Shown here one piece after another: positions 46,485 through 64,000 of a DNA stretch of 64,000 nt (positions within the stretch are counted from its first letter, which is position 1; each line of letters begins with the position of its first letter). The translations under genes and the position numbers were made by a program. Source of the stretch: Candidatus Daviesbacteria bacterium RIFCSPLOWO2_01_FULL_39_23 (GTDB lineage: Bacteria > Patescibacteriota > Microgenomatia > Daviesbacterales > UBA10151); contig MFDN01000005.1 of the NCBI GenBank assembly GCA_001776935.1, positions 68,893 through 132,892 of the forward strand, read 5' to 3'. Under the pieces are notes generated by a model. That model saw nothing but the letters and a program-made list of their open reading frames with translations, ran no database searches and was not told the origin of the DNA.

Positions 46485-47037
46485 GATTTCCTCCTTTGCT
46501 GTGAATATTGTGCGTTAGATCCAGAATAAAATCAGCCACATGATGAGGCCTTGGGACATCCAACAAATCAATATTTTTAGAAGTCCCGGCTGTCTGAATA
46601 AAAACATCTCCATAATGAAAAATCGACTGCAATATTCCTCCCATGGATGATGAAGTATCTTCTACATTCCGCAGGGGTGCCATATCGATATTCTTAAAAA
46701 GAAGCGAATGAAAATCTACATCCACTATATTTTTCTCAGTTACTATAATGACATTAAAATACCATTGCAAAAAGCCTTCAAAAACAATAATTAACACCAC
46801 CAGATAGTTGACAATTAAAAATAATATTTCAAAAGTTTGGGGAATAGTCTCAAGATCCAAATTAAAAATAGGTAAAAACCTGGCAGCTATAAAAGGCACA
46901 AAAAATATTACAATAGCTGCAGTGATCCAGCCTAAATTAGTAATCGGGTGGGCCCTCAGTAAAAGAAATATCTTTTCGTCCGGATCCTGACCTTCAAAAC
47001 GGCAATTGGTAGGATTTTCTATATAAGAGGAGAACAT
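46462..47037 (-). CDS. Membrane protein, possible bacterial PH (YdbS/YdbT-like) domain
   Basis: 191 aa; two TM helices followed by a soluble domain. Confidence 0.35.
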   Translation of the reverse strand: MFSSYIENPTNCRFEGQDPDEKIFLLLRAHPITNLGWITAAIVIFFVPFIAARFLPIFNLDLETIPQTFEILFLIVNYLVVLIIVFEGFLQWYFNVIIVTEKNIVDVDFHSLLFKNIDMAPLRNVEDTSSSMGGILQSIFHYGDVFIQTAGTSKNIDLLDVPRPHHVADFILDLTHNIHSKGGNHASHHPV

Positions 47038-48850: not shown

Positions 48851-48885
48851 TGTCCTAAAATTTTACCATAAACTCTAATCTCTAG

Positions 48886-48967
48886 ACCCTAAATCCCAAA
48901 ATGTGCTAAGCGCTAAGCTGAAATTTATTGTCCAAAACCATTTTATAGATGGTATAATATAAACATT
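48886..48967 (+). promoter_or_regulatory. Repeated cassette-leader element, copy 1 (CCCTAAATCCCAAAATGTGCTAAGC ... TGTCCAAAA ... TATAAT)
   Basis: Shares CCCTAAA...GTGCTAAGC, AATGTCCA and a -10-like TATAAT with copies at 49569, 50345 and 50650. Confidence 0.5.
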
Positions 48968-49240
48968 ATGAACAAAGCCCAAATCATATCTAACCCCAAA
49001 ATCTTAGGTGGAAAACCCGTGATTGCCGGCACCAGAATTTCAGTGGAACTCATACTGGATAGGATCTCTACCGGAATGAGCGAAAAAGAAATATTAATTG
49101 ATTATCCGCATTTAACAGCTAAACAGATTCAGGCAGCCGTAGCATACGCCAAACGAATAGTTATACAAAAAACTGGCACAAAATTGTCAAGTAAAGACAC
49201 TACACCCGTCACCTTATATACCCATGAAATTTCTCGCTGA
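48968..49240 (+). CDS. DUF433-family protein (antitoxin-like)
   Basis: 90 aa. NPKILGGKPVIAGTRISVELIL typical DUF433. Confidence 0.6.
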   Translation: MNKAQIISNPKILGGKPVIAGTRISVELILDRISTGMSEKEILIDYPHLTAKQIQAAVAYAKRIVIQKTGTKLSSKDTTPVTLYTHEISR

Positions 49241-49565
49241 TGAGGATTTCCCCAAACCTCTGATAATCAAAATTAGGAACTTTGGCTTTTCAATCAAAAC
49301 TATCCAGCAGAAAGATCTTCAAGGATCTTCTGATGAAAGAGTAGCAAGTATCGCTCTCAAAGAAAAACGAATACTTTTAACCTTTGATAAGGATTTCTTA
49401 AAAAACCAGTCTAAAAAATTGCAAGCGGTCATTTTCAGCTTCCCTAAAACTCCAACCGCCGAGATACTTTCTTTAATAGAAATGTTCCTGCGAAATTTGC
49501 CGGAAGAATTATTGAAAAGGAAAATATTAAGATTCAGCAAACGTGGATTTGAAATAATTACTTAG
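49224..49565 (+). CDS. DUF5615/Mut7-C PIN-like protein (toxin-like partner of DUF433)
   Basis: 113 aa. MKFLADEDFP...ILLTFDKDF. Confidence 0.55.
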   Translation: MKFLADEDFPKPLIIKIRNFGFSIKTIQQKDLQGSSDERVASIALKEKRILLTFDKDFLKNQSKKLQAVIFSFPKTPTAEILSLIEMFLRNLPEELLKRKILRFSKRGFEIIT

Positions 49566-49568
49566 TAT

Positions 49569-49662
49569 GACCCTAAATCCCAAAATGTGCTAAGCCACAA
49601 CCAGTTTCATAGTTGTGATAAACTAACTTTAATGTCCAAAAAGATGATATAATACAATCAAT
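49569..49662 (+). promoter_or_regulatory. Repeated cassette-leader element, copy 2
   Basis: CCCTAAATCCCAAAATGTGCTAAGCC...TTAATGTCCAAAAAGATGATATAATAC. Confidence 0.5.
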
Positions 49663-49923
49663 ATGAAAAATATTATTACCAGGAATCCAAAAATTTTAGG
49701 CGGGAAACCCATTATTGCCGGCACCCGGATGTCTGTAGAAGTTATTCTGGAATCTTTAGCCGGAGGCATGAGCATAGAAGAAATGCTAAAAGAATATCCT
49801 TTCTTAAAGAAAGAACATATCCAAGCAGCCATAGATTATGCCGCTAAAATTGTTGGTAAAGAAGAAAGCTACTTGTTTGAAAAAGCTTCTGCTATTACCC
49901 ATGAGATTCATCGCCGACGTTAA
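49663..49923 (+). CDS. DUF433-family protein (second copy)
   Basis: 86 aa. NPKILGGKPIIAGTRMSVEVIL. Confidence 0.6.
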   Translation: MKNIITRNPKILGGKPIIAGTRMSVEVILESLAGGMSIEEMLKEYPFLKKEHIQAAIDYAAKIVGKEESYLFEKASAITHEIHRRR

Positions 49924-50260
49924 TATTCCTCAATTACTTATCACGCGGTTAATCGATTTAGATCATAATGTCCTTGACATTAAAAAACATAATCTGGAAA
50001 TCAGCGATATAGAAATTATTAAGATTGCAAAGAAGGAATCAAGAGTAATACTTACCCGGGATAAAGACTATATAATTTTGGTTCAATTCCCTAGGTATCA
50101 AGTTCCTATTATCGCCATCAGGTTGATCAATCAAACTGATACCCAATATATTACCAGCAAAGTTTTGGAATTTATTAAAAATAATAAAGAATCAATTATC
50201 TTAAATTCTTTAACTGTTATCAGAGAGAATGCTGCTACTTCCTATCAGTACCCACTGTGA
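49901..50260 (+). CDS. DUF5615/Mut7-C PIN-like protein (second copy)
   Basis: Start at MRFIADVN overlapping the DUF433 stop; ...ILTRDKDY. Confidence 0.5.
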   Translation: MRFIADVNIPQLLITRLIDLDHNVLDIKKHNLEISDIEIIKIAKKESRVILTRDKDYIILVQFPRYQVPIIAIRLINQTDTQYITSKVLEFIKNNKESIILNSLTVIRENAATSYQYPL

Positions 50261-50344
50261 TTTTCCTGTCTCAAAAATATATACGATCGTATTAAGTTTT
50301 GTCTATTTTACTAATCATTAAAATTCTAACCACCATTCCCTAGT

Positions 50345-50440
50345 CACTAGGCCCTAAACCCTATCTTGTACTAAGCCACAATCAATTCACGTAGTTGTGG
50401 TAAACTAAAATCAATGTCCAAAATACCTTCTATAGCAATA
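50345..50440 (+). promoter_or_regulatory. Repeated cassette-leader element, copy 3, followed by a truncated 5' remnant of a pilin-like gene
   Basis: CCCTAAACCCTATCTTGTACTAAGCCACAA...TCAATGTCCAAAA. After it, MSKIPSIAIFFV* mirrors the signal peptide of the 50693 gene. Confidence 0.45.
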
Positions 50441-50516
50441 TTTTTTGTATAGTTATTTTTTTCTCCGGTTTCAACCATACCGCCTACGCAATAGACCCAA
50501 AAGATGATTATATTCA

Positions 50517-50690
50517 GACCACCTCTTTAGGAGGAAGGGCTGATTATTTGGTGACAGGAGACGAAGATTTGCTTGCGCTTAGTGCCAAACCTGATTTGGG
50601 AGAACTGAAGATTGTTACGACCAAACAGTTCCTGGCTAAAATTTTACCACAAACTCTGGACCCCAAACTTCTCTTGTGCTAAGCTAAAAT
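50517..50690 (+). pseudogene. 3' remnant of a PIN-domain gene
   Basis: Encodes ...GRADYLVTGDEDLLALSAKPDLGELKIVTTKQFLAKIL*, resembling a PIN-domain C-terminus, with no N-terminal part; overlaps leader element copy 4 (50650-50700). Confidence 0.35.
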
Positions 50691-50692
50691 TA

Positions 50693-52204
50693 ATGTCCAG
50701 GATATTCACTATACCAATAATTTTCCTTTCTGTTGTTATATTTTTCTTCGGTTTTAACCGCATCACCTACGCTATAGATCCAAGAGATCCAAACCTTGAA
50801 ATCATACCCCCATCTCCTGCGGTTACAGACTCACAAGTAACCATCACTGTACAAACCAAAGACGGCAGTAGTTCTTTTAATGAAAAAAAATATTCTTTCG
50901 CTGCATGGAAAGGCGATCTCAGTCTGGTAAACTTTGGTATTTATAAGAGACTCGTAGATTATAATTGTGTTTATATAAACTTTAATGAGAACATCTCTAA
51001 TAGAAAAAACGCAGATCTTAGAATTACTCTGGATAAATCAAAAGCTATTGCTATCTGGCCAGTAGATAACAAGTGCGTAAAAATGGGTGACGTCTGGCAT
51101 TTTCGCTTATGGGCATCTCCAAGCATTGATCCTATGGGTAGCGACTGGGATACCATGATTGAAAATAATTTTCTGGTAGAAGACTACAAGTTTCAGTTTG
51201 TTCAACCAAACGGCAAGATTGCTGCAATCAAAGCAGGAGGAAATACCCAAGATTCTAATGTTTACTCTGGGGAAAATGCAACAGTTGTGCTTTCTAATGC
51301 AGCCGATGGTGCCTCCTACACGTTTTGGTGGCATGGCGCATATGGTATTGCTGAAATATATCATAGCAAAGGATCAGGAAACTTTGAAATCGAAATTAAG
51401 GACCGCTTGAATGGCAAGCAAAGATTGTGTATGGAATTTGGTGATGCTGGATTGCAACCGCCAAAAGGTCATCCTTGCAATCAGCCTGGAAAATTTGTTG
51501 ATTTTGAGTTCCATGGCATTAAAAGACCTCCGACAGCTACTTTGCCTCCTGGAATTCAAACTAAATGTTTTTTATATGCTGCCCACCTGCCAACACTTAA
51601 GGAAAGGGATTCCCTAGCAGTCGGTTACATGAATTTACCTCCACGTCAGGAATTCAAGGCAACACTTGTTAATAAAGATGGCACCGAAGTAAATTCCGCA
51701 AAAGCCGTATCCGACCAAAAAGGAAGTCTACTCATCTCTGTAATAACAGAAATTGGTATTGGTGAAGATTATAAGGTCACCATCACTGATTCTAGCAATA
51801 AAGAGGTTTGCTCAGAAATCTTTTCAGCAACAACAGACGGCACAAGTCCTAAATTCGCTAAATGCGACGATTCTTCTTGCACCCGCTTACCGGATAATAT
51901 GGAATGTAAAGACGGTAGCGGAATCGGTATTAATACTGCCATTGGCTGTATTCATACCAATCCGGCAGCGTTGGTAAAAGATCTTTTAAGGTTTATCCTT
52001 GGAATAGGAGGAGGAATTGCATTTTTAATGATGCTTTTGGGGGTTTTCCAGATGCTGACTTCTGCCGGAAATCCCGAGACTTTAAATGCCGGAAAGGAAA
52101 GATTAACCAGTGCGGTGATTGGACTGCTGTTTGTTATCTTCTCCATCTTGCTGTTACAAATTATAGGGTGGGGTATCTTGAAAATACCGGGATTAGGATC
52201 TTAA
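50693..52204 (+). CDS. Large secreted protein with a C-terminal TrbC/VirB2-like pilin module
   Basis: Probable start at MSRIFTIP inside ORF 50612-52204; signal peptide ...NRITYA/IDP. C-terminus FILGIGGGIAFLMMLLGVFQMLTSAGNPETLNAGKERLTSAVIGLLFVIF matches the pilin-like paralog motif. Confidence 0.5.
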   Translation: MSRIFTIPIIFLSVVIFFFGFNRITYAIDPRDPNLEIIPPSPAVTDSQVTITVQTKDGSSSFNEKKYSFAAWKGDLSLVNFGIYKRLVDYNCVYINFNENISNRKNADLRITLDKSKAIAIWPVDNKCVKMGDVWHFRLWASPSIDPMGSDWDTMIENNFLVEDYKFQFVQPNGKIAAIKAGGNTQDSNVYSGENATVVLSNAADGASYTFWWHGAYGIAEIYHSKGSGNFEIEIKDRLNGKQRLCMEFGDAGLQPPKGHPCNQPGKFVDFEFHGIKRPPTATLPPGIQTKCFLYAAHLPTLKERDSLAVGYMNLPPRQEFKATLVNKDGTEVNSAKAVSDQKGSLLISVITEIGIGEDYKVTITDSSNKEVCSEIFSATTDGTSPKFAKCDDSSCTRLPDNMECKDGSGIGINTAIGCIHTNPAALVKDLLRFILGIGGGIAFLMMLLGVFQMLTSAGNPETLNAGKERLTSAVIGLLFVIFSILLLQIIGWGILKIPGLGS

Positions 52205-52224
52205 TGTAAAGATCAAAAATCAAA

Positions 52225-52596
52225 ATGCAAAATGACAGTGTAAAATTCAAAATTGAGTTCAAGAAAAGACTGTACAGTTTTGCATTAAAACTCATAACAT
52301 TTATCGATCAGCTACCAAATGATAATGTTTCTAAAAGAATCGGAGACCAACTTTTAAGAAGCGGCACGAGTATCATAGGAAATTATATCGAAGCCACAGC
52401 CTCCAGCTCAAAAAAAGACTTCACTAATTTTTTTAATCATTCGTTAAAATCAGCTAACGAAAGCAAACTATGGGTATCCCTTTTAAAAGACACAGGCAGG
52501 GCTGTAAAAGAAAAAACCGAATGGTTTATTGTTGAACTGGATGAAATATCAAAAATTTTTGCCTCTTCAATATTAACTCTAAAAGGTAGAAAATAA
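52225..52596 (+). CDS. Four-helix-bundle protein (23S rRNA intervening-sequence protein family)
   Basis: 123 aa. IGDQLLRSGTSIIGNYIEA...KKDFTNFFNHSLKSANESKLW matches the family signature. Confidence 0.55.
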   Translation: MQNDSVKFKIEFKKRLYSFALKLITFIDQLPNDNVSKRIGDQLLRSGTSIIGNYIEATASSSKKDFTNFFNHSLKSANESKLWVSLLKDTGRAVKEKTEWFIVELDEISKIFASSILTLKGRK

Positions 52597-52662
52597 TGTT
52601 ATTAACATTTTAGATTTTGATATGTCATTTTGATATTTACATTTTAATTTTTAAATTTACTT

Positions 52663-52986
52663 ATGAAGATTGCTCAAGTACTACCTGACCTTCAAAAAAT
52701 ATATGATGCCAAGCCGGCAAAAGATATTAACAGCTTAGGCGATCTTATTTCCGTCTTTCTAAACATTGTTTTTTATGCAGCCGGATTTTTAGCTTTCTAC
52801 TATCTGGTTTGGGGAGCGCTCTCCTATATTATGGCTCAGGGAAATAAAGAAAGTCTGGCCAAAGCCAGAGCCAGGATTACCTGGGCAATTATCGGACTGA
52901 TGGTAGTATTTTTGGCATTTTTCATAGCTAGATTCGCAGGGGAAATATTCCCGCCCAGTCCGGACAGAGGAGGGTTGCCATTTTGA
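52663..52986 (+). CDS. TrbC/VirB2-like pilin-family protein (paralog 1)
   Basis: 107 aa. Hydrophobic helix, then AQGNKESLAKARARITWAIIGL, then a second hydrophobic helix. Confidence 0.55.
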   Translation: MKIAQVLPDLQKIYDAKPAKDINSLGDLISVFLNIVFYAAGFLAFYYLVWGALSYIMAQGNKESLAKARARITWAIIGLMVVFLAFFIARFAGEIFPPSPDRGGLPF

Positions 52987-53426
52987 GAGAAATATCAAAT
53001 ATCAAATATCAAATATCAAAATGTTTAAAACATTTTAGATTTTACATTGTCATTTTGATATTTACATTTTACATTTTAATTTTACCTCCCACCCCTGTTT
53101 ATGCTGCCAACCCCTGCACTCCCGACCCAAAAGGAGGATTTAATATAGGCAGCTGCTTTGGCTTTGGGGATATCACTTCTTTGGGTCAGGCTACCAGCAG
53201 ACTGGTTATACCTGTATTTTCCATAGCCGCGGCAGCAGTAGTAATATATTTTTTACTGGGGGCTTTTAAATATTTGAGTTCAGGGGGAAATAAAGAAGCC
53301 GTAGCAGGAGCCCGAGGAATGATTACTCATGCCATTATTGGATTTTTAATATTAATGTTTGCCTTTTTGATATTACAATTCTTAATATCAAGCTTATTCG
53401 GGATTACCAATTTTCAACTATTTTAA
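52983..53426 (+). CDS. TrbC/VirB2-like pilin-family protein (paralog 2)
   Basis: 147 aa. ...LSSGGNKEAVAGARGMITHAIIGFL... The 5' end contains the (ATATCAA)x4 tandem repeat. Confidence 0.5.
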   Translation: MREISNIKYQISKCLKHFRFYIVILIFTFYILILPPTPVYAANPCTPDPKGGFNIGSCFGFGDITSLGQATSRLVIPVFSIAAAAVVIYFLLGAFKYLSSGGNKEAVAGARGMITHAIIGFLILMFAFLILQFLISSLFGITNFQLF

Positions 53427-53435
53427 AGTTAGAAA

Positions 53436-54074
53436 TTAAAAATGCGGACCGGGAATATGAGTCCCTATATTTTTTACCCAGGGAATTTTATACCTGAAAG
53501 CATAAATACTTGCTATTAAACCAATCAAACCACTACCAATAATAATCTGTCCTAAAGGCAACTCGCTATTATCCCTATTTTCTAACTTCTCAGAAATAAA
53601 AGTGGCTGTTGGAGAAGGAACCGGTGTATAAGTCGGGAATAATCCAGCCCGTTGCCTAATTCTAATCTGTTCTTCTGTAAACGTAGGAGTTACAGTAGAA
53701 GTTACTGTAGGCGTTCCTGTTTCTGTAGGGGTTGGAGTTAGTGTCGGTATACTGGTTTTTGTAGGTGTTCCCTTTATAGCACTTATTTCATCGGCTATAG
53801 CAGTGTGAGTTGCCTCACGAAAGGCTAAATCCCTTTCTTTGGATAAAGCAGTTGTGGTTTTATCTGCAATAGCGATTTTAATATCCTGAACATCCGGTGT
53901 TGGTGTTACAGTAGCGGTCGGAGTCCTTGTTGCGGTAACAGTTGAAGAAGGCTTAGGTCCGTCAGCATAAACGTTTTGTGCGGTGTTATCTATCGCAACA
54001 TTTATCGCTGCGCCCAATACTAACGCGCCTATGGTTCGTCTTCCTATTTCTACAATTCCGGGTTGTTTTTCCAT
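53436..54074 (-). CDS. Hypothetical Thr/Pro-rich membrane-anchored protein
   Basis: 212 aa. TPT repeats (TPTATVTPTP, TPTPTETGTPTVTSTVTPT) and a C-terminal TM segment. Confidence 0.35.
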   Translation of the reverse strand: MEKQPGIVEIGRRTIGALVLGAAINVAIDNTAQNVYADGPKPSSTVTATRTPTATVTPTPDVQDIKIAIADKTTTALSKERDLAFREATHTAIADEISAIKGTPTKTSIPTLTPTPTETGTPTVTSTVTPTFTEEQIRIRQRAGLFPTYTPVPSPTATFISEKLENRDNSELPLGQIIIGSGLIGLIASIYAFRYKIPWVKNIGTHIPGPHF

Positions 54075-54184
54075 AATTAAAGCAATATTTTAGCACAATA
54101 AGACCATTTTGTCAAAATTATAGGATATAATAACTGCCATCTTTCTAATTTCTCTTTTTAAGTGATAATATTAGTCTAGAAGTC

Positions 54185-54823
54185 ATGAACTTATTTACTT
54201 TTGCTAGAAAAATAACCCTGTTGATACTATTTTTTTATCTCATTTCTTTTATTATGCCTGCCTCCTCTTTAGCGATCGAACCAGGACTTCCTTGTGACCC
54301 CCAGGCTGCCAAAAATGAGTGTGAAAAAGATCAAGATGGTTTCAGTTATTCCTGCCAGCGGGTTAAAACCCAATTCCTTTGTGAACGCGATATATTTGGC
54401 ACTGTTGATCCTCCTCCGGTTTTAAATCCTTTTTTAAAAAAAGATTCCACAGGTTCTGGGGCTATTAGTGATTTTTTATCCAGATTAATAGTTTTAATTT
54501 ATTCCATAGCAGGTATAGTTTTACTTTTTATGATCCTTTGGGGAGCTTTGGAATGGATGTTATCCGGAGGAGATAAGGAAAAAATTGCCTCTGCAAGAGG
54601 CAGGATTTTTAATGCCATTATCGGCATCATCCTGTTTGCAATAGCTTTTGCTATAATAAGAGTCATTGGGCAATTTACCGGGTTTACGTTTTTTAAAGGA
54701 CAAAATGATGTCGTTATTGTAAGCACTGGCTATGACTCCACCAGTCAAAGTTCTTATGTTTTATGTTCAAACGGACGAAAGCTCTTCACCCCTAGAAAAG
54801 ACAACGCTGTCTGCACTGAATAG
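54185..54823 (+). CDS. TrbC/VirB2-like pilin-family protein (paralog 3) with Cys-containing N-terminal domain
   Basis: 212 aa. ...LSGGDKEKIASARGRIFNAIIGIILF... Confidence 0.5.
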   Translation: MNLFTFARKITLLILFFYLISFIMPASSLAIEPGLPCDPQAAKNECEKDQDGFSYSCQRVKTQFLCERDIFGTVDPPPVLNPFLKKDSTGSGAISDFLSRLIVLIYSIAGIVLLFMILWGALEWMLSGGDKEKIASARGRIFNAIIGIILFAIAFAIIRVIGQFTGFTFFKGQNDVVIVSTGYDSTSQSSYVLCSNGRKLFTPRKDNAVCTE

Positions 54824-54866
54824 CACTTGACAAGTGCTTTGAAATATAGATATAGTTAAGCTACTA

Positions 54867-55238
54867 ATGAAAAAATTAGCATTTTTAGGATCTTCAGTTT
54901 TATCTTTTTTATCACCGGCTTTAACATTAGCCGCTGATCCAATACAAATCCAAAAACCTGCGGGAGTTGGTTTTTCAACTATTGGAAATTTTATCAGCAA
55001 TATATTAACGGTTGTTTTCAGTATAGCTATTTTAGCAGTACTGGTAATGCTGATCTGGGGGGCTTTTGAATGGATCACTTCAGGCGGAGATAAAGAAGCT
55101 GTTGGTAAAGCAAGAGGGAAAATTATTAATGCCTTAATAGGTTTGGCTGTTTTGGCAGTAGCTTTTGCTTTAGCCAGATTAGGCGGACAATTCGTAGGAG
55201 TAGATATTACTAACCTGCCTATCCCCGATCCCCTGTAA
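54867..55238 (+). CDS. TrbC/VirB2-like pilin-family protein (paralog 4)
   Basis: 123 aa. Signal peptide ...ALTLA/ADP; ...ITSGGDKEAVGKARGKIINALIGLAVLAVAFA. Confidence 0.6.
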   Translation: MKKLAFLGSSVLSFLSPALTLAADPIQIQKPAGVGFSTIGNFISNILTVVFSIAILAVLVMLIWGAFEWITSGGDKEAVGKARGKIINALIGLAVLAVAFALARLGGQFVGVDITNLPIPDPL

Positions 55239-55288
55239 TCTTTAAAACCTTAGTTGTGATTCAAAAAAATTAATGATAAGTTAGAATA

Positions 55289-55756
55289 ATGACAGGTTAT
55301 ATGTTACAGGTTACAGGAATAAAAATACTAGCTTTATTTTTTGCTATCCTTGTCTTTCTTTACCCTTTACCCTTTACCCTTTACCCTGCCTTTGCTGCTA
55401 CTGCCCCTTGCGATGATGCAAATTCCATCAGAGCAGGTTACGGGCCTTGCCCTGCAGGACTTTCAGAAATCGAACAAGTAGTGGCTAACGTAATTTCCGT
55501 AATAGTAGGATTGGGGTTTATTACCATGCTGGTAATGCTTATTTTTGCAGGGATTAAATACTTAACCTCAGGAGGAGAACCTAAAGCCTTGCAAGCTGCT
55601 CATATGACTGTTACCTGGGCCCTTTTGGGAATCTTCTTTCTGGCTTTGGCCTGGCTGGCATTACAACTTATTGCAAACTTAACAGGAATAGACGTTACTG
55701 TATTTAATATAAAAGCCTTGTGCGGCGGAACAGGATTGCCGTTTTGCCAACCTTAA
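55289..55756 (+). CDS. TrbC/VirB2-like pilin-family protein (paralog 5)
   Basis: 155 aa. ...LTSGGEPKALQAAHMTVTWALLGIFFLALAW. Contains the (CTTTACC)x4 tandem repeat encoding YPLPFTLYP. Confidence 0.5.
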   Translation: MTGYMLQVTGIKILALFFAILVFLYPLPFTLYPAFAATAPCDDANSIRAGYGPCPAGLSEIEQVVANVISVIVGLGFITMLVMLIFAGIKYLTSGGEPKALQAAHMTVTWALLGIFFLALAWLALQLIANLTGIDVTVFNIKALCGGTGLPFCQP

Positions 55757-55987
55757 TCAATTTTTTAAGGCTTTACTGAATTCTTCTATAGACATATTTA
55801 GGTCGTCAATTATGGCTTTTAATGTTCCGCGCCTTATTTCTTGAGTTGGATGATAAGGGATAGTGGTTCTTCTGCCGTCGGCATGCTTAAGTTGAACATG
55901 ACTGCCTACCTGATGATATTTCAAAAATCCCAATTTGTTGAGCGTTTTTAGAAGTTGTCTGGCTTTAACAACAGGTAACTTAGGCAT
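55757..55987 (-). CDS. hicA: HicA-like mRNA interferase toxin
   Basis: 76 aa. ...LKYHQVGSHVQLKHADGRRTTIPYHP... HicA/YcfA pattern. Confidence 0.65.
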   Translation of the reverse strand: MPKLPVVKARQLLKTLNKLGFLKYHQVGSHVQLKHADGRRTTIPYHPTQEIRRGTLKAIIDDLNMSIEEFSKALKN

Positions 55988-56216
55988 TAAAAGTAATTGT
56001 TTGGATTACCTCCAGGGAATTTTTCTCCTGCGGAGGCGTGACACCATCTTTGTGCAACCCTTCCAGATGGCAACGGATAGCTTCTTCTAAATTATCTTTA
56101 GTTTCTTCGATAGTATCACCCACAGTATGAACGCCCTTTAAAATAGGCACAAATCCATGGTAACCCTTTTCATCAGGTTCAATAATGGTTCTATAAGTAT
56201 ATGTTTTCATATTCAA
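55980..56216 (-). CDS. hicB: HicB-like antitoxin
   Basis: 78 aa. YRTIIEPDEKGYHGFVPILKGVHTVGDTIEE... HicB/UPF0150 pattern; overlaps hicA. Confidence 0.65.
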   Translation of the reverse strand: MNMKTYTYRTIIEPDEKGYHGFVPILKGVHTVGDTIEETKDNLEEAIRCHLEGLHKDGVTPPQEKNSLEVIQTITFNA

Positions 56217-56275
56217 ATTATACTTGATACAGACAAGACTTGCAAAAGGGACTTAGTTTAAGTTAGTGTTAAAAT

Positions 56276-58195
56276 ATGACTGCCCGATTTGAATTTACAA
56301 TTTACAATTTGTTTTTCAAACTGCCTCCGGCAGAGCACTTTACAATTAAATTCTTAATAATCTCTCTTCTGGCTTTTGTTTGTACATTATACATTGTACA
56401 TTTTACATTCCTCACCCCTGCTTCTGCCCAGACCCCTTCTGCTGTTACTGTAGCCACCTCTTCATCCACCTCGGGGGAGCCAAAGCTCACCCCCGAGGTG
56501 TCTCAAACAATACCCTCCTATATCCCCCCTACTTCCCCTCTTTATACTGATCTTTTGGTAAATAATTTATTCCATTCCTTCAGTTGTCTGGCAATCGGGC
56601 AATCCATGATCGGACAACCCTGCTTGACTTATAAAGTCACCAAAAACGCCCAAGGCGCACTTCAGGGCATACCGGTTCTATCCCAGGTGAACCTGTCCGG
56701 CGGTGCATTAGGCTCTGTAACTTCGGTCATCGGAGCTTTGTACCTAAATCCTCCGGTAAGAACTGCTGATTATTTAGCTTCTGTGGGAACCGGATTAGGG
56801 ATTGTTAAAGAAGCCAATGCACAGGTTGTCGGTTCAGGCGCGGCAGTATTAAGTCCTATTTTAAGCCTTTGGCAGGTTTCCAGAAATGTTTCATACGTTA
56901 TCATGATCATTATTTTTGTGGTGATCGGGCTAATGGTGATGTTCCGGAATAAACTTAACCCCCAAACAGTTATTACAGCCCAGGCAGCTTTACCAGGACT
57001 GGTGATTGGCTTAATTTTAATCACTTTTTCCTACTTTTTAGCAGGACTTATTTCCGATATGGCTTTTGTGGGAACCAATGTAGTAGGTTATTATTTTGTG
57101 GCTGCCCAGGGCAGATTAGACGATCCACAGTTTAAGGACCAGCTCAATTTAACACAGAAAATCTCTCAAAGTAGTATCCTAGACATTTTAGCCCCACTAA
57201 CAGGAATAGTAACACGGGAAAGAGCAGACGATGCAGCCAACCGCTTTGTCAGCCAACTGGGAGATGCCATCTGGCCAATAAGAATAGCAATATTCTTCCT
57301 AAGCGCACAATTTTTGATGCCCATTGCCGGCGGTATTCCCCCTCCTTTTGGTTTGATTGCAGCTCCAATAGTCAGCCTGTTTGGCGGAGCTGTTGCTAAC
57401 ATCGGTCTACCCTTCTTTTTGGGTTACTTTTTAAGCTTTGCTGCTGCTTTGGCACTCACCTATCAAATGATCAAACTGCTGATTAAACTGATTATGGCAT
57501 ATCTGACAATAATTTTTTTGACAATCAGCGCCCCGTTTCAGTTTTTGTTTGCTTCTTTACCGGGCAGACAGGGAATAGCCACCGGCTGGATTATGAACAT
57601 GTTGGGAAATATTTTAATATTTCCGGCAGTGGTGGCAGTCATTTATTTTGTAGCATTCCTGCTTGGTCCTGAACTAATGGCGCCGCATTGCCCCCAAGCT
57701 ACCTGCCCATTTAAGGTTTCCAATTTAAATCAGGAGAGTAACATTGCTCTTGTATCTCCAGTATATGCCCAAGGTGCTAATGAAATAATCGGCAACTCAA
57801 CTTTCCCTTTATTAGGAGGAATGGATTTGAATTTTGTCAAGATTTTACTGGCTTTTGGGGCTTTAATGGCATTACCCACAATCCCTGATATAATAACCAG
57901 AGCCATTGGCAAAGGAGGACAAGCAGGATCTATGATCGGACAAGAAATTATGGGTGGCTTTAGAGAAGGCCAAGGCTACGCCCAAAGAACCTACATGGGG
58001 GGACTAAACTATGCTCAGGGAGCTAAGACAAGTATCTTTGGAGAGAAACAGTTCTCTAGAAACCCCACGACAGGAAGATGGGCGGCTACTTATGGAAAAC
58101 CTGGTGCGGTTCATTGGGGTCAGATTGAAAGGGGTAAAACAGATGCAGATATGACAGAAGGCACGAAAGCAGGCACTCAGGCTTTAGGAAGTTAA
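56276..58195 (+). CDS. Polytopic membrane protein, VirB6/TrbL-like T4SS component
   Basis: 639 aa with many TM helices and a Ser/Thr-rich N-terminal region; position next to the pilin genes; no catalytic motif. Confidence 0.45.
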   Translation: MTARFEFTIYNLFFKLPPAEHFTIKFLIISLLAFVCTLYIVHFTFLTPASAQTPSAVTVATSSSTSGEPKLTPEVSQTIPSYIPPTSPLYTDLLVNNLFHSFSCLAIGQSMIGQPCLTYKVTKNAQGALQGIPVLSQVNLSGGALGSVTSVIGALYLNPPVRTADYLASVGTGLGIVKEANAQVVGSGAAVLSPILSLWQVSRNVSYVIMIIIFVVIGLMVMFRNKLNPQTVITAQAALPGLVIGLILITFSYFLAGLISDMAFVGTNVVGYYFVAAQGRLDDPQFKDQLNLTQKISQSSILDILAPLTGIVTRERADDAANRFVSQLGDAIWPIRIAIFFLSAQFLMPIAGGIPPPFGLIAAPIVSLFGGAVANIGLPFFLGYFLSFAAALALTYQMIKLLIKLIMAYLTIIFLTISAPFQFLFASLPGRQGIATGWIMNMLGNILIFPAVVAVIYFVAFLLGPELMAPHCPQATCPFKVSNLNQESNIALVSPVYAQGANEIIGNSTFPLLGGMDLNFVKILLAFGALMALPTIPDIITRAIGKGGQAGSMIGQEIMGGFREGQGYAQRTYMGGLNYAQGAKTSIFGEKQFSRNPTTGRWAATYGKPGAVHWGQIERGKTDADMTEGTKAGTQALGS

Positions 58196-61100
58196 TTCCT
58201 AAAATCACCTTTTTTGATACCTGGAAACATCTCGGTGTTGCCTGCAACAGCTTCTTTACGGACTAGCGGCGGGATACTCTCTCCCAAATTCCTTATCTTT
58301 TCTTGATCATATTTGCCTGTTTTTCTATTTAACGTATACCAGTAGAAACCTTCTTCCCGCATAAACTCTAGAAGACCTCTTCTCCTTACATTTTCCAAAG
58401 CTTTTTTGACTTCCTTATGCAACCCTGGATCATTCCAGGTTTCTTCATTCAGCAGTGACCGCCCTTTTTGTTTTGCCGCGTTATCTGGCCTAGGTGCCTT
58501 TATCGTATTCCCTTGCGTATCTGTTTTAGGCCGACCTTTATCATCCAGTACCGGATCCATAATAATGTTTCCATCCTGATCCCGTTCATGCAATACTTTG
58601 GATAAAATTAGAGCTCCTTCCTGAGCTAATCTGTTTCTTTCATAATCTCTGAGGATCAGATAATCGCCATCCATGAGCATTGTTTCAACCATTGCAAGAG
58701 ATATCTCGCTGAAAGCTTCTCTTGAATATCCCAGCCGGTCAACAATGCCCCTTCCTCCTTTATCCAAACTTTCTCTGAGCAGCCTTCTAAAGGCATACCA
58801 CCTTATAGTATTCTCATAGACATAGTTTCTGGGCGCATTTCCAATCCTGTTTTGTTCAACTTCTTTTTCTGCCTTTAGCCACATTGTGAAATAGTCAAAT
58901 ACTTTAGCTGTTGTATTATAGAGCTCATTTGATTTTACTTTTCCCTTAGATGCTAGTTTATTGTGATCTACCCAAGTTAATTGTCTGGCTACTTCCAAAT
59001 CAGGATCATTAGACAAGCGTTTTCCTGATCGTACTTCATCCATAAGAATAATATATGTCTTTGTATACCCCAGGCCGAGACTATGCAGGATATTTTCTGC
59101 TACTATACTACGCATCACGTCAGCTACCTGCCAGGCACCATGAATGGGTTCCATTAAAAATCCGGGGGTGAATTGACCTTCTCCTAAGCTCCCGCCTGTC
59201 AAAGCTGTCCTAGCTTTATAAGCTGCTGCTTGTGCTTTGGCGTTTTGAGTCATATCTTTTCTAGGATCAAGCATTTTCTGCTTATGAGCCTCAACCTCAT
59301 TCCTCCTTTTCATGTAATTATTTATATCCCCAATACTTCGGCATCCTAACCATATTCCTAAAGGAAAATAGTTTGTCCCAGCAAAAGGAATAAATTCTGG
59401 AAATTTTACTCCCCCGCTGGTAGAAATATTATATTCTGCCTCAGTAACCGTAAGATTTTCTGGATCATCTCCTGAATCAACTACCCTTAATCTGTCTTCC
59501 ATTTCCTGTGGTTCACCCCAGTCATCAGACATGGTAAACAAAGAAACAGCCGGTTTAGGCACCCCCTGCACCTTCACAACCTTGCCATTAATATCACGCT
59601 CATAAATTGGATATTTCCCAAGCATAAATTCATTATTTGCGCGTCTCGTTTCTGAACGCAAACCTCTTCTTTCGCGTTCCAAAAATTCATAAATTTCTTT
59701 TTTATAATCCGCAAAAGGTAAACCCGGGGCTACTTCTACTCCAAACTCTGCCAGGATTCCCCCGAAAAATTTAATCCCGGAGTTATCAAGAGCGCTGGTG
59801 TGCGGCGTGGTTGGAAATCTTCCGTTTACCATACCCTTAGCTTTAAAAGCATGGGTAACTAAAAACTGACAGTCGACTAATTTATTCCTTAAATTTTTCG
59901 TAGTTTCATCCAAAGCCCGGGTTGCAGTATCAATTGCAGTCTGATCTTTAGCGAGCTCTGCTTTATACAAGGCTTTTTGTGTCTGACGCTTGGCATCTTT
60001 AAAGGGTTTTATTTCTGCCTCTTCATCAGCAATAGCCTTTGCCAACCGCGCCTCAATCACATCCCATACACGAAGACTTTTTCTTTCCGGGTCTACAATA
60101 ATAGCTTCACCATTAGCATCTCTTTCAACTTCAACCTCGCGAGTAACAGGATTTATCCTCCCTTTAATCAGACCTAACAATACACTGGTTTCATCATCAG
60201 CCAGTCTGCCTGTATATTCCCCTGCTTGTGGATGACCTTTTGGCATAATCATTCTAATTCTCATCCCGCCCAGTAAACTACTTTCCATCAAAAACCCCTG
60301 AAAAGACCGGGCCAGTTCAAAACCAAATCTTGCTTCCTCTATACGCCCAGCTTGAAGATCTTTAATTCTTGCCTGAACCTCAACATCGCCATCCGCCGCC
60401 TCCGGAAAATAGGCTGATTCATACATTGCCACCCGTTCTTCGTCTGTTAAGGAACGATCAATTACTTTAGCTGCCCGATCTATCTTCAGCCTGACTTTGT
60501 CCCAACCGCTTGGATACCATCTTCTTTGATGAGTTAAAATCCGTTTATCGTTATAATCTTTTACCCATCTCCAGGCAATGCGATCGCACTCTGTTAGGTC
60601 TCCTTTTTTCTTAGCTTCATCAAATTGAGCCATAGCATTTTTGCTCGGACGTATAAAATAACTCCTTTTTTTATTACTTAACAACTCCATCTGCTCCCGG
60701 ATCCTAGTCCTGACAGCTTCTTGTCTTGTGCTTTCTGTTTTTTGCTCAACTTCTTTTTCAATCCATGCTTTGCTTTCATCAGAATCAGGATTTTTACCCT
60801 CATTACGCAACCGGATACGTAACTGCTCCCGGAAAACATCTTTGCGCACTTCAGCTAAATCAAATAATTCCTCGTCTGATAAAGGTCTGCGCCTACGCTT
60901 TTCCTCTTGTTCAATTTCAGCCCGTGTAACAAAATCAAACCCATCCTCGCGGTCTAATTGCTGTTTTATCCTGCGGAAAACTTTGACACGTAAATCATGT
61001 CTTGTTAAAGCCTCATCATCCTTTGTGTCTGCAATTCTTTTCCTGATTTCATCGTTGGGATCCAAGAGTAATATTTCCAAAGGATCGTTTGCGGAATATT

Positions 61101-63219
61101 GCAATTTATAAAATTCCCTTAGTTCAAAAAAACCTTTATAAGCTAACCTTGCATCTTCCTCGTCGTCTTTACTTCTGATCAACCTTAAATCTTCCTCGCC
61201 TTGTTTTGGCTCTTTACTGAACAGATCTCTGTGCAACCCAAAGAGAGATTCCGTAAAAAAATCCAGAGTGGCAGCTTCATCTATCAACTCCTCCTGTATT
61301 TCTGTCCTGTAATCAAGAATATCGCCCTCTTCGGCTTTATCTGTGCGCCAATTATGTCCAGTCCAGTAAGTTCCATCCTTATGCCTTCTTATTCTCTGCA
61401 TCAGATAAGCTGCACACCTGTTTTCCAAATACATGGCATTAAAATTTGCAATAAACCTGGCAGCAAATCTTTCTTTTGCCTGTGGCCCATATTCAGTATT
61501 ACCAGCTTTCATAATCATATCGTTGGCAAAAACATCAGGTAAAGCTTCGCTTATAGCTCTTGCTCTCAGGTAGTCCGGGTTTGTTTCCAGGATTTTTCCA
61601 AACAGTGCAACTAATCCTGGTTCATCATTACACCGGATGCGGCTGTTTTTAAGTAACATCGGACCAGTCTTTCTAGCTTCTTCAAACTCCTGATTTGCAG
61701 TTCCCGCATCACGCTGACCTATATCTGCTATACGGTCCTTCATCCAGTCCATTACAGTCAGAATCATGTCTCTTGCGCTTTCAGGCCATCCGAATATAGT
61801 AATAGTTGCTCCTCCCCAATAAGATTCGGCTTGAAAATACCTGTTTTCGGATGTACTCATCCTATCCTTAGCCCGTTGACGTTTAATTATGGTGAAGATT
61901 CTTTCTACGGCAGGATGTTTAATTATTCTGTTGATGCCTTCCTCCTCAAAACCGATTAACGCATGAATCCCATCCCATAAATATTGATATATACCTCCAA
62001 TCTCAGCTTTTAACGGCGCAAGTTCAGCAGCATCTTCCAATATTTGTTCCTGCATCCGCGCCCGGCTTCTTTCCTGCTCGATCACAGCTTCTCTTCCCCT
62101 GCCCTGTAACTCACGAACTCTGGTTTCCTTAATCTTTTTATAAGAATCCAGAACCCTTCTAAAAAACTCCTTTAAGGGTTTTACCGGATGATTTTCTGCT
62201 TCAAGCGCCAATTGCTCAATCCTTTGCCTGCTTTGTTCTTGAAGCAGTTTAAGTTGCTGTTGCTCAATTGGGTCTTTCGGTATCGGCCTTGACATTAATT
62301 GTTCATAAACAATTCGAGCTTGAGTAAAAACGCTTGGCCGTTCCGGATTATTTAACTCTATAGCCCTATTCCGGAGTATTTCAACTTCATCCAAAAGACC
62401 ATTTGCTTTATCTGCGGCAGCATCGGGTATCTTTCCTTCATACAGTTGTGCTTCAACAAATACTGCGATTCTGTTAAAAAAGTCTTCATCTGCAAGACCC
62501 CGATCAACGGCATGTTTTACTCTTGTCGCAACCTGTTTTAGCATTGGATTAATACCATAGTCATCCGGATTAATACTTCTTTCTCCCGGAGAGAGACGAC
62601 CCACTAATCCTGCTTCAAAAAGTTTACGTCTTTCTTCTTTAGTAAAACTTGATAATTCTTCTGCTTTTCCCCGGATCTGTTCCCGCTTTAAATTGTATAC
62701 ACCCGCCCGGTATTCTTCATTAAGACCTGCTTCCTTTGATGCTTTTTCATGAGCAGCTATAAGCTCCTTCTGCTGTTGTTCAGACAGTTCTTTGCCTAAC
62801 ACTTCTGCTGCTTTTTGCTTGCGCTCTTCGTCCCCAAGCGCGGCATTTTCTAAAACAGTTCCCTCTACTATTATCTTTCCGTTTATTACCTGTCCAGGTG
62901 ATAATGGCATATTTGGCAAATTAACCTTTGTTGATTCCGGCTGACCCGTTACTTTTTCATTATTGGCCTTTTGAGCGAGCGCAGTACGTATACGCTCCGC
63001 TTCTTGTTCTGCATCTTTAAGAAAGTCTTCGTGAGTTTCATATTTATACCGTTGCTGTTGAATAACTTCCAGAGGATGACGCTGGTTTAGCGTCGCAAAT
63101 AGCTGACGGGACATGCCTGGAATAGGAGATTTAACCGCTGCATTTTCGGCTTGGGGTCCTGGTTGTGTAACTTCTGGTCCTGCATTTGTTCCTTCTGCCA
63201 TATTTCTTTCTTGCGCCAT
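58192..63219 (-). CDS. Very large (1675 aa) charged, coiled-coil-rich hypothetical protein
   Basis: Single uninterrupted ORF; E/K/R-rich; no TM segment, Walker motif or recognisable catalytic signature; sits in the T4SS-like region. Confidence 0.5.
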   Translation of the reverse strand: MAQERNMAEGTNAGPEVTQPGPQAENAAVKSPIPGMSRQLFATLNQRHPLEVIQQQRYKYETHEDFLKDAEQEAERIRTALAQKANNEKVTGQPESTKVNLPNMPLSPGQVINGKIIVEGTVLENAALGDEERKQKAAEVLGKELSEQQQKELIAAHEKASKEAGLNEEYRAGVYNLKREQIRGKAEELSSFTKEERRKLFEAGLVGRLSPGERSINPDDYGINPMLKQVATRVKHAVDRGLADEDFFNRIAVFVEAQLYEGKIPDAAADKANGLLDEVEILRNRAIELNNPERPSVFTQARIVYEQLMSRPIPKDPIEQQQLKLLQEQSRQRIEQLALEAENHPVKPLKEFFRRVLDSYKKIKETRVRELQGRGREAVIEQERSRARMQEQILEDAAELAPLKAEIGGIYQYLWDGIHALIGFEEEGINRIIKHPAVERIFTIIKRQRAKDRMSTSENRYFQAESYWGGATITIFGWPESARDMILTVMDWMKDRIADIGQRDAGTANQEFEEARKTGPMLLKNSRIRCNDEPGLVALFGKILETNPDYLRARAISEALPDVFANDMIMKAGNTEYGPQAKERFAARFIANFNAMYLENRCAAYLMQRIRRHKDGTYWTGHNWRTDKAEEGDILDYRTEIQEELIDEAATLDFFTESLFGLHRDLFSKEPKQGEEDLRLIRSKDDEEDARLAYKGFFELREFYKLQYSANDPLEILLLDPNDEIRKRIADTKDDEALTRHDLRVKVFRRIKQQLDREDGFDFVTRAEIEQEEKRRRRPLSDEELFDLAEVRKDVFREQLRIRLRNEGKNPDSDESKAWIEKEVEQKTESTRQEAVRTRIREQMELLSNKKRSYFIRPSKNAMAQFDEAKKKGDLTECDRIAWRWVKDYNDKRILTHQRRWYPSGWDKVRLKIDRAAKVIDRSLTDEERVAMYESAYFPEAADGDVEVQARIKDLQAGRIEEARFGFELARSFQGFLMESSLLGGMRIRMIMPKGHPQAGEYTGRLADDETSVLLGLIKGRINPVTREVEVERDANGEAIIVDPERKSLRVWDVIEARLAKAIADEEAEIKPFKDAKRQTQKALYKAELAKDQTAIDTATRALDETTKNLRNKLVDCQFLVTHAFKAKGMVNGRFPTTPHTSALDNSGIKFFGGILAEFGVEVAPGLPFADYKKEIYEFLERERRGLRSETRRANNEFMLGKYPIYERDINGKVVKVQGVPKPAVSLFTMSDDWGEPQEMEDRLRVVDSGDDPENLTVTEAEYNISTSGGVKFPEFIPFAGTNYFPLGIWLGCRSIGDINNYMKRRNEVEAHKQKMLDPRKDMTQNAKAQAAAYKARTALTGGSLGEGQFTPGFLMEPIHGAWQVADVMRSIVAENILHSLGLGYTKTYIILMDEVRSGKRLSNDPDLEVARQLTWVDHNKLASKGKVKSNELYNTTAKVFDYFTMWLKAEKEVEQNRIGNAPRNYVYENTIRWYAFRRLLRESLDKGGRGIVDRLGYSREAFSEISLAMVETMLMDGDYLILRDYERNRLAQEGALILSKVLHERDQDGNIIMDPVLDDKGRPKTDTQGNTIKAPRPDNAAKQKGRSLLNEETWNDPGLHKEVKKALENVRRRGLLEFMREEGFYWYTLNRKTGKYDQEKIRNLGESIPPLVRKEAVAGNTEMFPGIKKGDFRN

Positions 63220-63396
63220 AAATTCCTTTCTTTAGAGTCTAGTCGCTAGAGTCAAGAGTCTAGAATTTATGATCTTAACTCCAGCATAGAACTTCCAAAA
63301 TTAAAAGTCAAAACTCAAAGTTCAAAGCTCAAAACTACAGCTTAAAGCTTAAAACTTACAAGTAGTTTATACTGAGTAAAATCGAAGCGCTTGATT

Positions 63397-63714
63397 TTAT
63401 TTTGACAAAATCCTGACGGGTTTAAAGTTAAATATTGATCTACCTAATTCCAAAACACTCCCTCTGCATTGTCCCCCAAAACCATGTTTCCCATTACACT
63501 GAAAACATCTCCGCCGACTCCCTCTTGCACGACGAATCCTTTTTGACCCTCTATTAGCTTTTAATTCGCCGGACAAAAAATCCGGAATTAACCTGCTTAC
63601 AGACGAAGTCTCGTTAAACCGAGCCATGATTGTTTCTGGAAAAGAAGGATTAACCCTCTGCATAACATCTGGGTAAACTAGACCGTTAATTCTTAAAGGT
63701 ATTTCTACTGGCAT
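63397..63714 (-). CDS. Hypothetical basic protein
   Basis: 105-aa ORF with an Arg-rich stretch and CFQCNGKHGFGGQC. Confidence 0.25.
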   Translation of the reverse strand: MPVEIPLRINGLVYPDVMQRVNPSFPETIMARFNETSSVSRLIPDFLSGELKANRGSKRIRRARGSRRRCFQCNGKHGFGGQCRGSVLELGRSIFNFKPVRILSK

Positions 63715-63788
63715 ATTGTAACTCCTTACAGAAACGCAATATTACAATATTTTTCCTTATGCAACAACCAAACTAATAGCTCAAAACT

Positions 63789-63959: not shown

Positions 63960-64000
63960 GGAATCTGATTCACCAATAACAGATGCCCCGGCTATACCTG

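Follow-up and report, generated by a model that had tools for sequence, protein, structure and literature searches.

In the 64-kb stretch of the Candidatus Daviesbacteria bacterium RIFCSPLOWO2_01_FULL_39_23 genome analysed here (contig MFDN01000005.1, positions 68,893 to 132,892; hereafter, the window), six plus-strand open reading frames (ORFs) encode two-helix membrane proteins that most probably constitute the pilin block of a chromosomal, origin-proximal type IV secretion system (T4SS) of the monoderm (MPF-FATA-like) kind. Candidatus Daviesbacteria belong to the Microgenomatia, within the Patescibacteria or candidate phyla radiation (CPR), and are ultrasmall and probably host-dependent. 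Arrays of this type have already been published, so that the Daviesbacteria locus is a further case and its headline novelty is low; the increments, which are modest, are a fixed, ordered set of six pilins, a candidate VirB6-like family, an adhesin-type pilin and a split VirB4.

All six ORFs, which span positions 50693 to 55756, match the T4SS_pilin family of Pfam (PF18895) above its gathering cut-off of 26.6 bits, with scores of 32.2-40.1 bits over 60-70 of the 71 profile positions. A hidden Markov model (HMM) of the array pilins, built from 17 modules of the window genome and two relatives, was searched against the window extended by 9.2 kb of the downstream contig (73 kb in total) and matched exactly these six ORFs and none other, with E-values of 1e-27 to 1e-35, far above chance. 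Thus, the six proteins with a shared module that had been pointed out in an earlier note on this DNA are all present; the start that the note assigned to the region, position 52225, is that of a gene of the 23S-rRNA-IVP family (PF05635), and the array begins at 50693. The module consists of a hydrophobic helix, the motif S/A-G-G-[NDE]-[KP]-E...A-[RK], and a second hydrophobic helix, in which A-I-I-G is conserved. Across all six modules, the identity is 19-31%, with an invariant G, A and G, and comparison of the paralogues yields 15-44% identity. By hydropathy, five of the six pilins contain a signal segment and two transmembrane-like segments, and pilin 2 lacks the signal segment. The architecture of TrbC/VirB2-type proteins, that is, a signal peptide, two helices and a short basic loop, is recognisable in the array, with the loop SGG[NDE]KE..A[RK]. 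The tails contain even numbers of cysteines and the helices contain none, which fits a topology with both tails outside and the loop in the cytoplasm.

The array is embedded among T4SS genes. Positions 48192-64000 of the window show no mismatches to three public contigs, one of which is from Candidatus Daviesbacteria RIFCSPLOWO2_02_FULL_39_13 (GCA_001779775.1), and the genes downstream of the window were read from the public contig and are given in window-equivalent coordinates (Table 1). A VirB4 ATPase is encoded on the same contig, 9.8 kb downstream of the polytopic, VirB6-like gene that follows the pilins and about 4 kb past the window end; the earlier statement that the window contains no VirB4 is true only because the window stops short of it. 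For comparison, we used 80 species-representative loci that were fetched with the alignment of the VirB6-like family and encode proteins 30-75% identical to that of the window (639 amino acids, aa); their six-frame ORFs were scanned with the pilin HMM and the T4SS proteins of the window. VirB4 is found no more than 10 kb downstream in 44 of the 57 loci counted for this gene, at a median distance of 7.3 kb and always on the same strand.

These findings bear on the possibility that what the six proteins share is just a membrane hairpin of a generic two-helix kind, unlinked to secretion. Short hydrophobic modules are prone to spurious profile matches, and PDB sequences yielded no match, but six PF18895 matches above the cut-off, independent sub-threshold matches to a pilin-like family of integrative and conjugative elements (ICE) and the close association with VirB4, PrgI and VirB6-like genes that is maintained in the 80 loci contradict this explanation and make it extremely improbable. 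The earlier note would have given up the pilin assignment had there been no T4SS genes elsewhere in the genome; with VirB4 4 kb past the window edge, and PrgI, TrsD-like and VirB4 genes together occupying the region 2-6 kb past it, the opposite is the case.

Number and order of the pilins across related loci

An upstream flank of 8 kb or more is available for 49 loci, of which 42 contain exactly six pilin modules (the remaining ones have 3, 7, 7, 7, 9, 10 and 11), and 303 of 306 modules precede the VirB6-like gene and share its strand. In most relatives, the pilin genes are contiguous or overlapping. Across the 51 loci with six modules, 278 of 306 modules (91%; about 1/6 expected by chance) find their best match in another genome at the same rank of the array. 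The median identity is 49-59% between orthologues versus 32% between paralogues within a genome, and a comparison of three genomes yields the same picture. Traits specific to individual ranks persist as well, namely, a large ectodomain at rank 1, the absence of a signal peptide at rank 2, and Cys-bearing tails at ranks 4 and 6. From the same-rank matches and the excess of orthologue over paralogue identity, the six pilins emerge as an old, ordered and individually conserved set. The fixed number, the conserved order and the rank-specific features point to non-redundant, sub-functionalised subunits, not to recent duplication and turnover.

A different use of such an array would be variation, with interchangeable major pilins serving immune or defence evasion or host matching, on the model proposed for the VirB2 paralogues of Bartonella and Anaplasma; the idea has been raised for Patescibacteria as well (PMC12102498). 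The strong divergence of the paralogues within the array agrees with such a device, as does the pilin 1 ectodomain, which is highly variable or swapped among genomes. However, the constancy of six pilins, their same-rank best matches and conserved order, and the conserved features of each rank (the ectodomain, the lack of a signal peptide combined with GGxPF, tails rich in Cys at ranks 4 and 6) make it improbable. That Daviesbacteria conserve the six pilins as positional orthologues favours a structure of several subunits over antigenic variation.

Two cysteines are found in the N-terminal tail of pilin 3, which has a signal peptide and is given an alternative start (123 aa) in one public record. 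In pilin 4, which likewise has a signal peptide, the module is flanked by an N-terminal tail containing four cysteines and a C-terminal one containing two. Pilin 5 is the simplest form and has the top score of the six to the array HMM; it is a candidate for the major subunit. A near-consensus promoter-like sequence, TTGACA-18-TATAGT, is located at 54827-54856, 5' of the pilin 5 ORF, but is only a hint because the array as a whole has no more promoter-like sites than expected by chance (26 versus 22.1 +/- 4.9 in shuffled sequence); the well-placed 11/12 matches in the array, two in all, count only as hints. The Cys pair of the C-terminal tail of pilin 6 is retained in an orthologue. The 'YPLPFTL repeat', which had been listed among the N-terminal extensions, was considered as a domain of pilin 6 and rejected: it falls in the hydrophobic/cleavage region of the signal peptide, and there is no repeat domain.

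As a separate observation, the very last residues of rank 2 pilins are GG[LVIT]PF in many genomes (22 of 51 if only the most frequent endings, LPF, VPF and TPF, are counted). Judging from this sequence pattern, the GG[LVIT]PF end may serve in processing or recognition.

Pilin 1 and its ectodomain

The first pilin ORF is long across the related loci (median of about 405 codons). In the window, the PF18895 module occupies residues 456-516 of the 530-aa ORF, and, as the earlier note had it, the pilin is fused to a secreted domain of about 400 aa: a signal peptide and immunoglobulin (Ig)-like domains precede the C-terminal module. The AlphaFold model (predicted local distance difference test, pLDDT, 74.7) contains a signal helix, beta domains at residues 35-170, 178-273 and 293-380, a small Cys-containing hairpin, and a C-terminal helical hairpin (424-456 and 461-495). 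The ectodomain comprises three Ig-like beta-sandwich domains and contains 10 cysteines. A Foldseek search with the model retrieves multi-Ig adhesin-type structures at E-values of 1e-7 to 1e-5 and with low TM-scores, including Bap, the Ig-like domains of PrgB, the adhesin of the pCF10 T4SS, as well as intimin, invasin and an S-layer protein. At the level of the predicted fold, this likeness to adhesins is a generic Ig-like similarity.

Among 484 homologues of pilin 1, the C-terminal pilin module is 60-82% identical, and the N-terminal 400 residues are 30-40% identical or replaced altogether. Fusion of a pilin to a secreted domain is common in this clade, and with its swappable Ig-like ectodomains, pilin 1 is likely to be a host-recognition determinant.

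Relation to known pilins and secretion systems

The nearest named relatives of the array pilins come from monoderm systems. Four of the six match NF045849, the Mbov_0395 pilin-like family of Mollicutes ICE, over 67-70 of its 80 positions with E-values of 5.5e-07 to 3.6e-03 (the best for pilin 2, over profile positions 7-74). With scores of 17-29 bits, none of these matches reaches the 40-bit cut-off; by this measure, the array pilins are relatives but not members of the family. The other nearest named relative is the actinobacterial DUF6112. Like the array pilins, the Mbov_0395 protein is small, has two helices and is part of a monoderm T4SS, but it is present as a single copy in the Mollicutes ICE, in contrast to the array in the Daviesbacteria locus. 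The sub-threshold likeness to NF045849 and the relation to DUF6112 hint that these pilins may belong to the T4SS lineage of monoderms and were not taken over from diderm systems.

With Agrobacterium VirB2 and RP4 TrbC (T-pilus structures 8cue and 8exh), the array pilins share the signal peptide, two helices and short basic loop, as well as the location of the gene beside VirB3/VirB4/VirB6-type genes. They differ in the longer loop followed by the conserved A-I-I-G, in the large N- or C-terminal extensions of several pilins and in the monoderm-type host. The TrbC/VirB2 signature proposed in the earlier note is upheld by the T4SS_pilin family, the architecture and the VirB4 linkage, but not by the TrbC/VirB2 family itself.

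Several results weigh against the assignment of the locus to a pilus-type T4SS. None of the six pilins matches PF04956 (TrbC/VirB2) at E<=1; searched against PDB sequences, the 17-module profile found no pilin; and an hhalign comparison of the pilin profile with mature Agrobacterium VirB2, the sequence of which was verified against 8cue, gave a probability of 0.4%, with no deep TrbC profile on the VirB2 side, given that tblastn of VirB2 against plasmids retrieved only close Rhizobiales relatives. A VirB8-like component was not identified, and experimental evidence of polymerisation of such proteins appears to be lacking for any Patescibacterium. The topology, what the SpoIID protein and the peptidase described below do, and what is transported are matters of inference.

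These points leave room for T4SS components that do not build an extended pilus and would instead form a short envelope-spanning conduit or membrane-embedded channel subunits. The kinship to Mbov_0395 and DUF6112, which come from monoderm systems not known to make pili, and a VirB4 of the monoderm CD1110 type favour this version of the system; the Ig-like ectodomains and disulfide-type tails suggest surface exposure, although they are compatible with a short structure, too. We consider a system without an extended pilus unlikely, yet a serious contender.

The assignment to a pilin block of a monoderm-type T4SS is in line with what has been described in other Patescibacteria. A survey reported 441 arrays of VirB2-like pilins in 383 assemblies, with 2-11 genes each and about 25% identity between paralogues, found with PF18895 and most abundant in Microgenomatia and Saccharimonadia (Quinonero-Coronel et al. 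2025, PMC12102498). The dataset of this survey includes GCA_001779775.1, flagged as VirB4-positive (PMC12102498). Like the Daviesbacteria locus, the surveyed arrays are tandem, replication-origin-proximal and devoid of relaxases; the survey suggested versatility of host range for arrays of variable size (PMC12102498), whereas in Daviesbacteria we find a fixed, ordered six together with a candidate VirB6-like family. In Southlakia epibionticum ML1, the T4SS cluster SEML1_0006-0019 includes six pilins that are essential by transposon sequencing (Tn-seq; Wang et al. 2023, PMC10633639; review, PMC12857230). This cluster shares with the Daviesbacteria locus the six divergent VirB2-like pilins, the monoderm-type organisation and the absence of a recognisable linked coupling protein or relaxase; S. 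epibionticum represents another class, Saccharimonadia, and essentiality has been demonstrated there, whereas the Daviesbacteria locus is known from genes alone. The view that expanded pilin sets are typical of the CPR thus agrees with the literature (PMC12102498, PMC10633639, PMC12857230), and a 2025 review treats pilus polymerisation in Patescibacteria as a possibility (PMC12857230). Patescibacteria are unusual among the bearers of monoderm T4SS in that these systems encode pilins, and in the one species examined so far, the T4SS proved essential. The Daviesbacteria locus sharpens this picture but does not change it.

A candidate VirB6-like membrane protein

Downstream of the pilins, the window encodes a 639-aa membrane protein with nine hydrophobic segments. 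In the AlphaFold model, which was built with 30 homologues and has a mean pLDDT of 64 (70-90 in the helical core), long helices run through residues 188-468 and 518-588, in agreement with a polytopic protein of at least five transmembrane helices. Its linkage is conserved, with pilins upstream and VirB4 downstream on the same strand at the frequencies given above. Within Daviesbacteria, the identity is 50-75%, and with E<=1e-3 as the limit, an exhaustive profile search extends the family to 3214 clusters formed at 50% identity.

The protein belongs to no Pfam or NCBIfam family and matches neither TrbL/VirB6 (PF04610) nor PrgH at E<=1; none of 41 diverse family members matches TrbL/VirB6 or PrgH at E<=0.1; and PDB sequence searches with two VirB6-like profiles returned chance matches or none. 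A Foldseek search of the model against the PDB gave nothing significant, with DotA at rank 24 and VirB6 chains at ranks 27, 36 and 45. TrwI/VirB6 of R388 (7o3v) and DotA of Legionella (9ngy) share 8% sequence identity with the 639-aa protein, and compared with TrwI, it is about twice as long, with 150 N-terminal residues that form an extracytoplasmic region and a C-terminal tail rich in Gly and Gln. Of the VirB6/TrbL-like neighbour claimed in the earlier note, the polytopic nature and the conserved linkage hold up, and a match to the TrbL/VirB6 or PrgH profiles does not. Taken together with the synteny, it seems likely, but is not proven, that the protein is VirB6-like. VirB6 homologues have been found to be scarce in Microgenomatia, which was put down to extreme divergence (PMC12102498), and the 639-aa family is a candidate for this component scarce in HMM surveys.

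Separately, we noticed that the two-helix hairpin that is most conserved in the core of the 639-aa family (residues ~200-260) gives sub-threshold matches to TrbC (PF04956) in 6 of the 41 distant members (best E-value 5e-05). An hhalign comparison of the family with the array pilin profile is weak (probability 8%, E-value 0.004). This signal could be due to chance or could reflect a pilin-like element in the platform protein; at the sequence level, a VirB2-like hairpin is unproven.

The VirB4 block and the flanking genes

The VirB4 type and its partners are those of monoderm systems: the 588-aa VirB4 belongs to the CD1110 family (NF045971), and genes for PrgI/VirB3-like and TrsD/TraC-like proteins precede it directly. 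The VirB4 match covers only positions 182-733 of NF045971, the N-terminal domain being absent. The preceding 256-aa protein matches TrsD and the N-terminal ~170 residues of two VirB4 families, in all cases below the cut-offs, and its gene overlaps that of VirB4. Given that the 256-aa protein matches the N-terminal part missing from the 588-aa protein, VirB4 is effectively split over two genes. Both proteins also match the Mbov_0397 VirB4 family, which comes from the type of element, Mollicutes ICE, that carries Mbov_0395. Between the giant gene discussed below and the PrgI/TrsD/VirB4 block, the position of the 105-aa and 485-aa genes is conserved, and relatives of the 485-aa protein, the C-terminus of which is Cys-rich, are present in many related loci.

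On the other side of the array, the divergent neighbour of pilin 1 encodes a membrane-anchored coiled-coil protein with a SpoIID/LytB domain and is found upstream of the array in 42 of the 49 loci. This protein is a candidate for a cell-wall remodelling, VirB1-analogous factor. The minus-strand block at 44431-47037, between SmpB and SpoIID, is syntenic in all relatives examined; it encodes three proteins, of 610 aa (one transmembrane segment, no family), 78 aa (DUF5657) and 191 aa (a membrane protein, bPH_2-like).

The VirD4-like coupling ATPase that the earlier note had placed at a distance is indeed about 45 kb from the array. Both its TrwB_AAD_bind and TraG-D_C matches exceed the respective cut-offs, and its neighbours, all of a housekeeping kind, encode an XerC/D-like integrase, Ni-SOD, a thioredoxin-reductase-like protein and PAP2. 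The coupling-protein genes of Patescibacteria are mostly unlinked to virB4, and the unlinked ATPase here agrees with this published pattern (PMC12102498).

VirB4, PrgI, the TrsD-like protein and the coupling protein have homologues in conjugation machinery from which they derive, and the window contains a serine recombinase and a tyrosine recombinase elsewhere, so the locus might be taken for an integrated conjugative element that transfers DNA. This is very improbable. The locus is bounded by the housekeeping genes SmpB/tmRNA and dnaN and is syntenic in at least 50 species-level genomes; in the ORFs scanned at 43.9-72.9 kb, a range that includes the genes between SpoIID and dnaN, no relaxase family was matched; the coupling ATPase is far away among housekeeping genes; and relaxases are rare in Patescibacteria, being present in only 103 of 3035 genomes (PMC12102498). 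Given the lack of a relaxase match in this range and the unlinked coupling ATPase, the system is probably not conjugative.

Predicted assembly and function

For the T4SS that we favour, a sequence of events can be outlined by inference from what is known of VirB2/TraA pilins and from the structure of the R388 T4SS. The pilins would be inserted into the membrane via the Sec pathway, with both tails outside and the basic loop toward the cytoplasm, so that the N-terminal extensions would be exposed at the outer surface. They would then be extracted from the membrane and assembled on the VirB6-like polytopic platform, and assembly would be powered by the split VirB4, consisting of the TrsD-like N-domain protein and the CD1110-family ATPase, with the PrgI/VirB3-like protein as an anchor. 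The cell wall could be opened by the SpoIID-type enzyme encoded upstream and the C39-like peptidase encoded downstream. Contact with the surface or the host would fall to pilin 1, with its fast-evolving Ig-like ectodomains, whereas the fibre or conduit would consist of the short pilins.

By analogy, it seems more likely that the system serves host interaction, through export of effectors or uptake, than conjugation; a host-contact role of the T4SS has been argued for Saccharibacteria (PMC10633639, PMC11665869, PMC12857230). A function in DNA uptake is speculation. A more inclusive reading, which we offer tentatively and with more doubt than confidence, would have six different subunits, of ancient origin and fixed order, build a hetero-oligomeric fibre or conduit of the T4SS on a platform from a hitherto unrecognised and very large VirB6-like family, for which Pfam has no model, with the giant protein as a secreted substrate. 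The subunits would be an Ig-domain adhesin pilin, a GGxPF-ended pilin without a signal peptide, two pilins with disulfide-type tails and two plain ones. As Saccharibacteria also have six, the set may, on this reading, go back to early Patescibacteria.

Insertions and the giant protein

The T4SS locus of the window contains genes that do not seem to belong to the machinery. Two relatives compared for the presence of inserts (L001 and L003) lack the DUF433/DUF5615 pairs, the 23S-rRNA-IVP gene at 52225-52596, the HicAB pair and the second 23S-rRNA-IVP gene. From this comparison of loci, the toxin-antitoxin pairs, the 23S-rRNA-IVP genes and the Pro/Thr-rich gene appear to be lineage-specific insertions. 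The Pro/Thr-rich protein matches no family and is poorly conserved (20-32% identity); it was considered as a core component and rejected, as a minus-strand ORF is found at this position in only 11 of the 51 six-pilin loci.

The giant protein is encoded convergently with the VirB6-like gene and has no match in Pfam, NCBIfam, PHROG or the PDB. Only 10 homologues were detected, the distant ones sharing just the N-terminal ~270 aa (40% identity) and being diverged in the rest; an iterative HMM search finds relatives in 18 of ~59 loci. A large, convergent minus-strand ORF without transmembrane segments occupies the slot in 58 of 59 related loci, with a median length of ~1240 aa. Thus, the slot appears to be conserved in position and hypervariable, fast-evolving in content. 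As a guess, the giant protein may be a T4SS substrate or effector, or else a cytoplasmic partner.

Table 1 Genes of the pilin locus and the distant coupling ATPase, in window coordinates (window-equivalent beyond 64000)
Feature	Position	Strand	Details
VirD4-type coupling-protein-like ATPase	3661-6009	-	782 aa; one N-terminal transmembrane segment; TrwB_AAD_bind 26.1 (cut-off 20.5), TraG-D_C 23.8 (cut-off 22), DUF87
SpoIID/LytB-domain protein	47141-48850	-	569 aa; PF08486 66.4 bits; TIGR02669 90.7 vs 83.3
Two DUF433/DUF5615 (PIN-like) toxin-antitoxin-type pairs	48968-50260	+	between SpoIID and pilin 1; precomputed Pfam, identical contig
Pilin 1	50693-52204	+	503 aa from the ATG of the public annotation; PF18895 34.5 bits
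23S-rRNA-IVP	52225-52596	+	between pilins 1 and 2; PF05635 63.2 bits; not machinery
Pilin 2	52663-52986	+	107 aa; no N-terminal signal peptide; conserved GGxPF at the C-terminal end; PF18895 37.3 bits
Pilin 3	52983-53426	+	147 aa; TTG start overlapping the pilin 2 stop; PF18895 32.2 bits
Pro/Thr-rich protein	53436-54074	-	212 aa; between pilins 3 and 4; N-terminal signal-like segment, C-terminal hydrophobic anchor
Pilin 4	54185-54823	+	212 aa; PF18895 40.1 bits
Pilin 5	54867-55238	+	123 aa; signal peptide and module, Cys-free; PF18895 39.1 bits
Pilin 6	55289-55756	+	155 aa; signal peptide, Cys pairs in N- and C-terminal tails; PF18895 33.3 bits
HicA toxin/HicB-like antitoxin pair	55757-56216	-	between pilin 6 and the VirB6-like gene; PF07927 and PF15919, identical contig
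Polytopic membrane protein, VirB6-like candidate	56276-58195	+	639 aa; nine hydrophobic segments
Giant soluble protein	58192-63219	-	1675 aa; no transmembrane segment
105-aa gene and 3' end of 485-aa gene	63397-64000	-	no Pfam match
485-aa gene, full extent	63789-65246	-
Second 23S-rRNA-IVP gene	65748-66074	+	beyond the window end
PrgI/VirB3-like protein	66147-67232	+	PF12666 36.6 bits (cut-off 27)
TrsD/TraC-like protein	67229-67999	+	256 aa; TrsD E-value 7e-07; precomputed Pfam PF26593, TraC-like
VirB4	67996-69762	+	588 aa; NF045971 378.7 vs 325 bits; P-loop_TraG 94.6 bits
Protein with Peptidase_C39_2 domain	69778-71955	+	725 aa
Two small membrane proteins	71963-72870	+	one with a Big_5 domain
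dnaN	from 72935	-

Other observations

Elsewhere in the window, a tRNA gene on the minus strand (33170-33430) is apparently split by a group I intron (Rfam Intron_gpI at 33213-33409, 55.1 bits versus 50). The intron flanks resemble tRNA halves (...CCCCTGTAGCTCAACGGTAGAGCGAGATCCTG upstream and ...GGTTCGAATCCACGCGGGGGAGCCA downstream), and ARAGORN does not call the split tRNA. The 3' end of a serine-recombinase ORF (31593-33275, plus strand) overlaps it on the opposite strand. A LOOT RNA (RF03000) is found at 28488-28598 on the minus strand, with 78.7 bits versus a gathering score of 46.4. Finally, many records of metagenome-assembled genomes that contain the Daviesbacteria-type locus (L012, L015-L017, L021-L022 and others, from binchicken co-assemblies) are titled 'uncultured Gammaproteobacteria bacterium', and these titles look taxonomically wrong.

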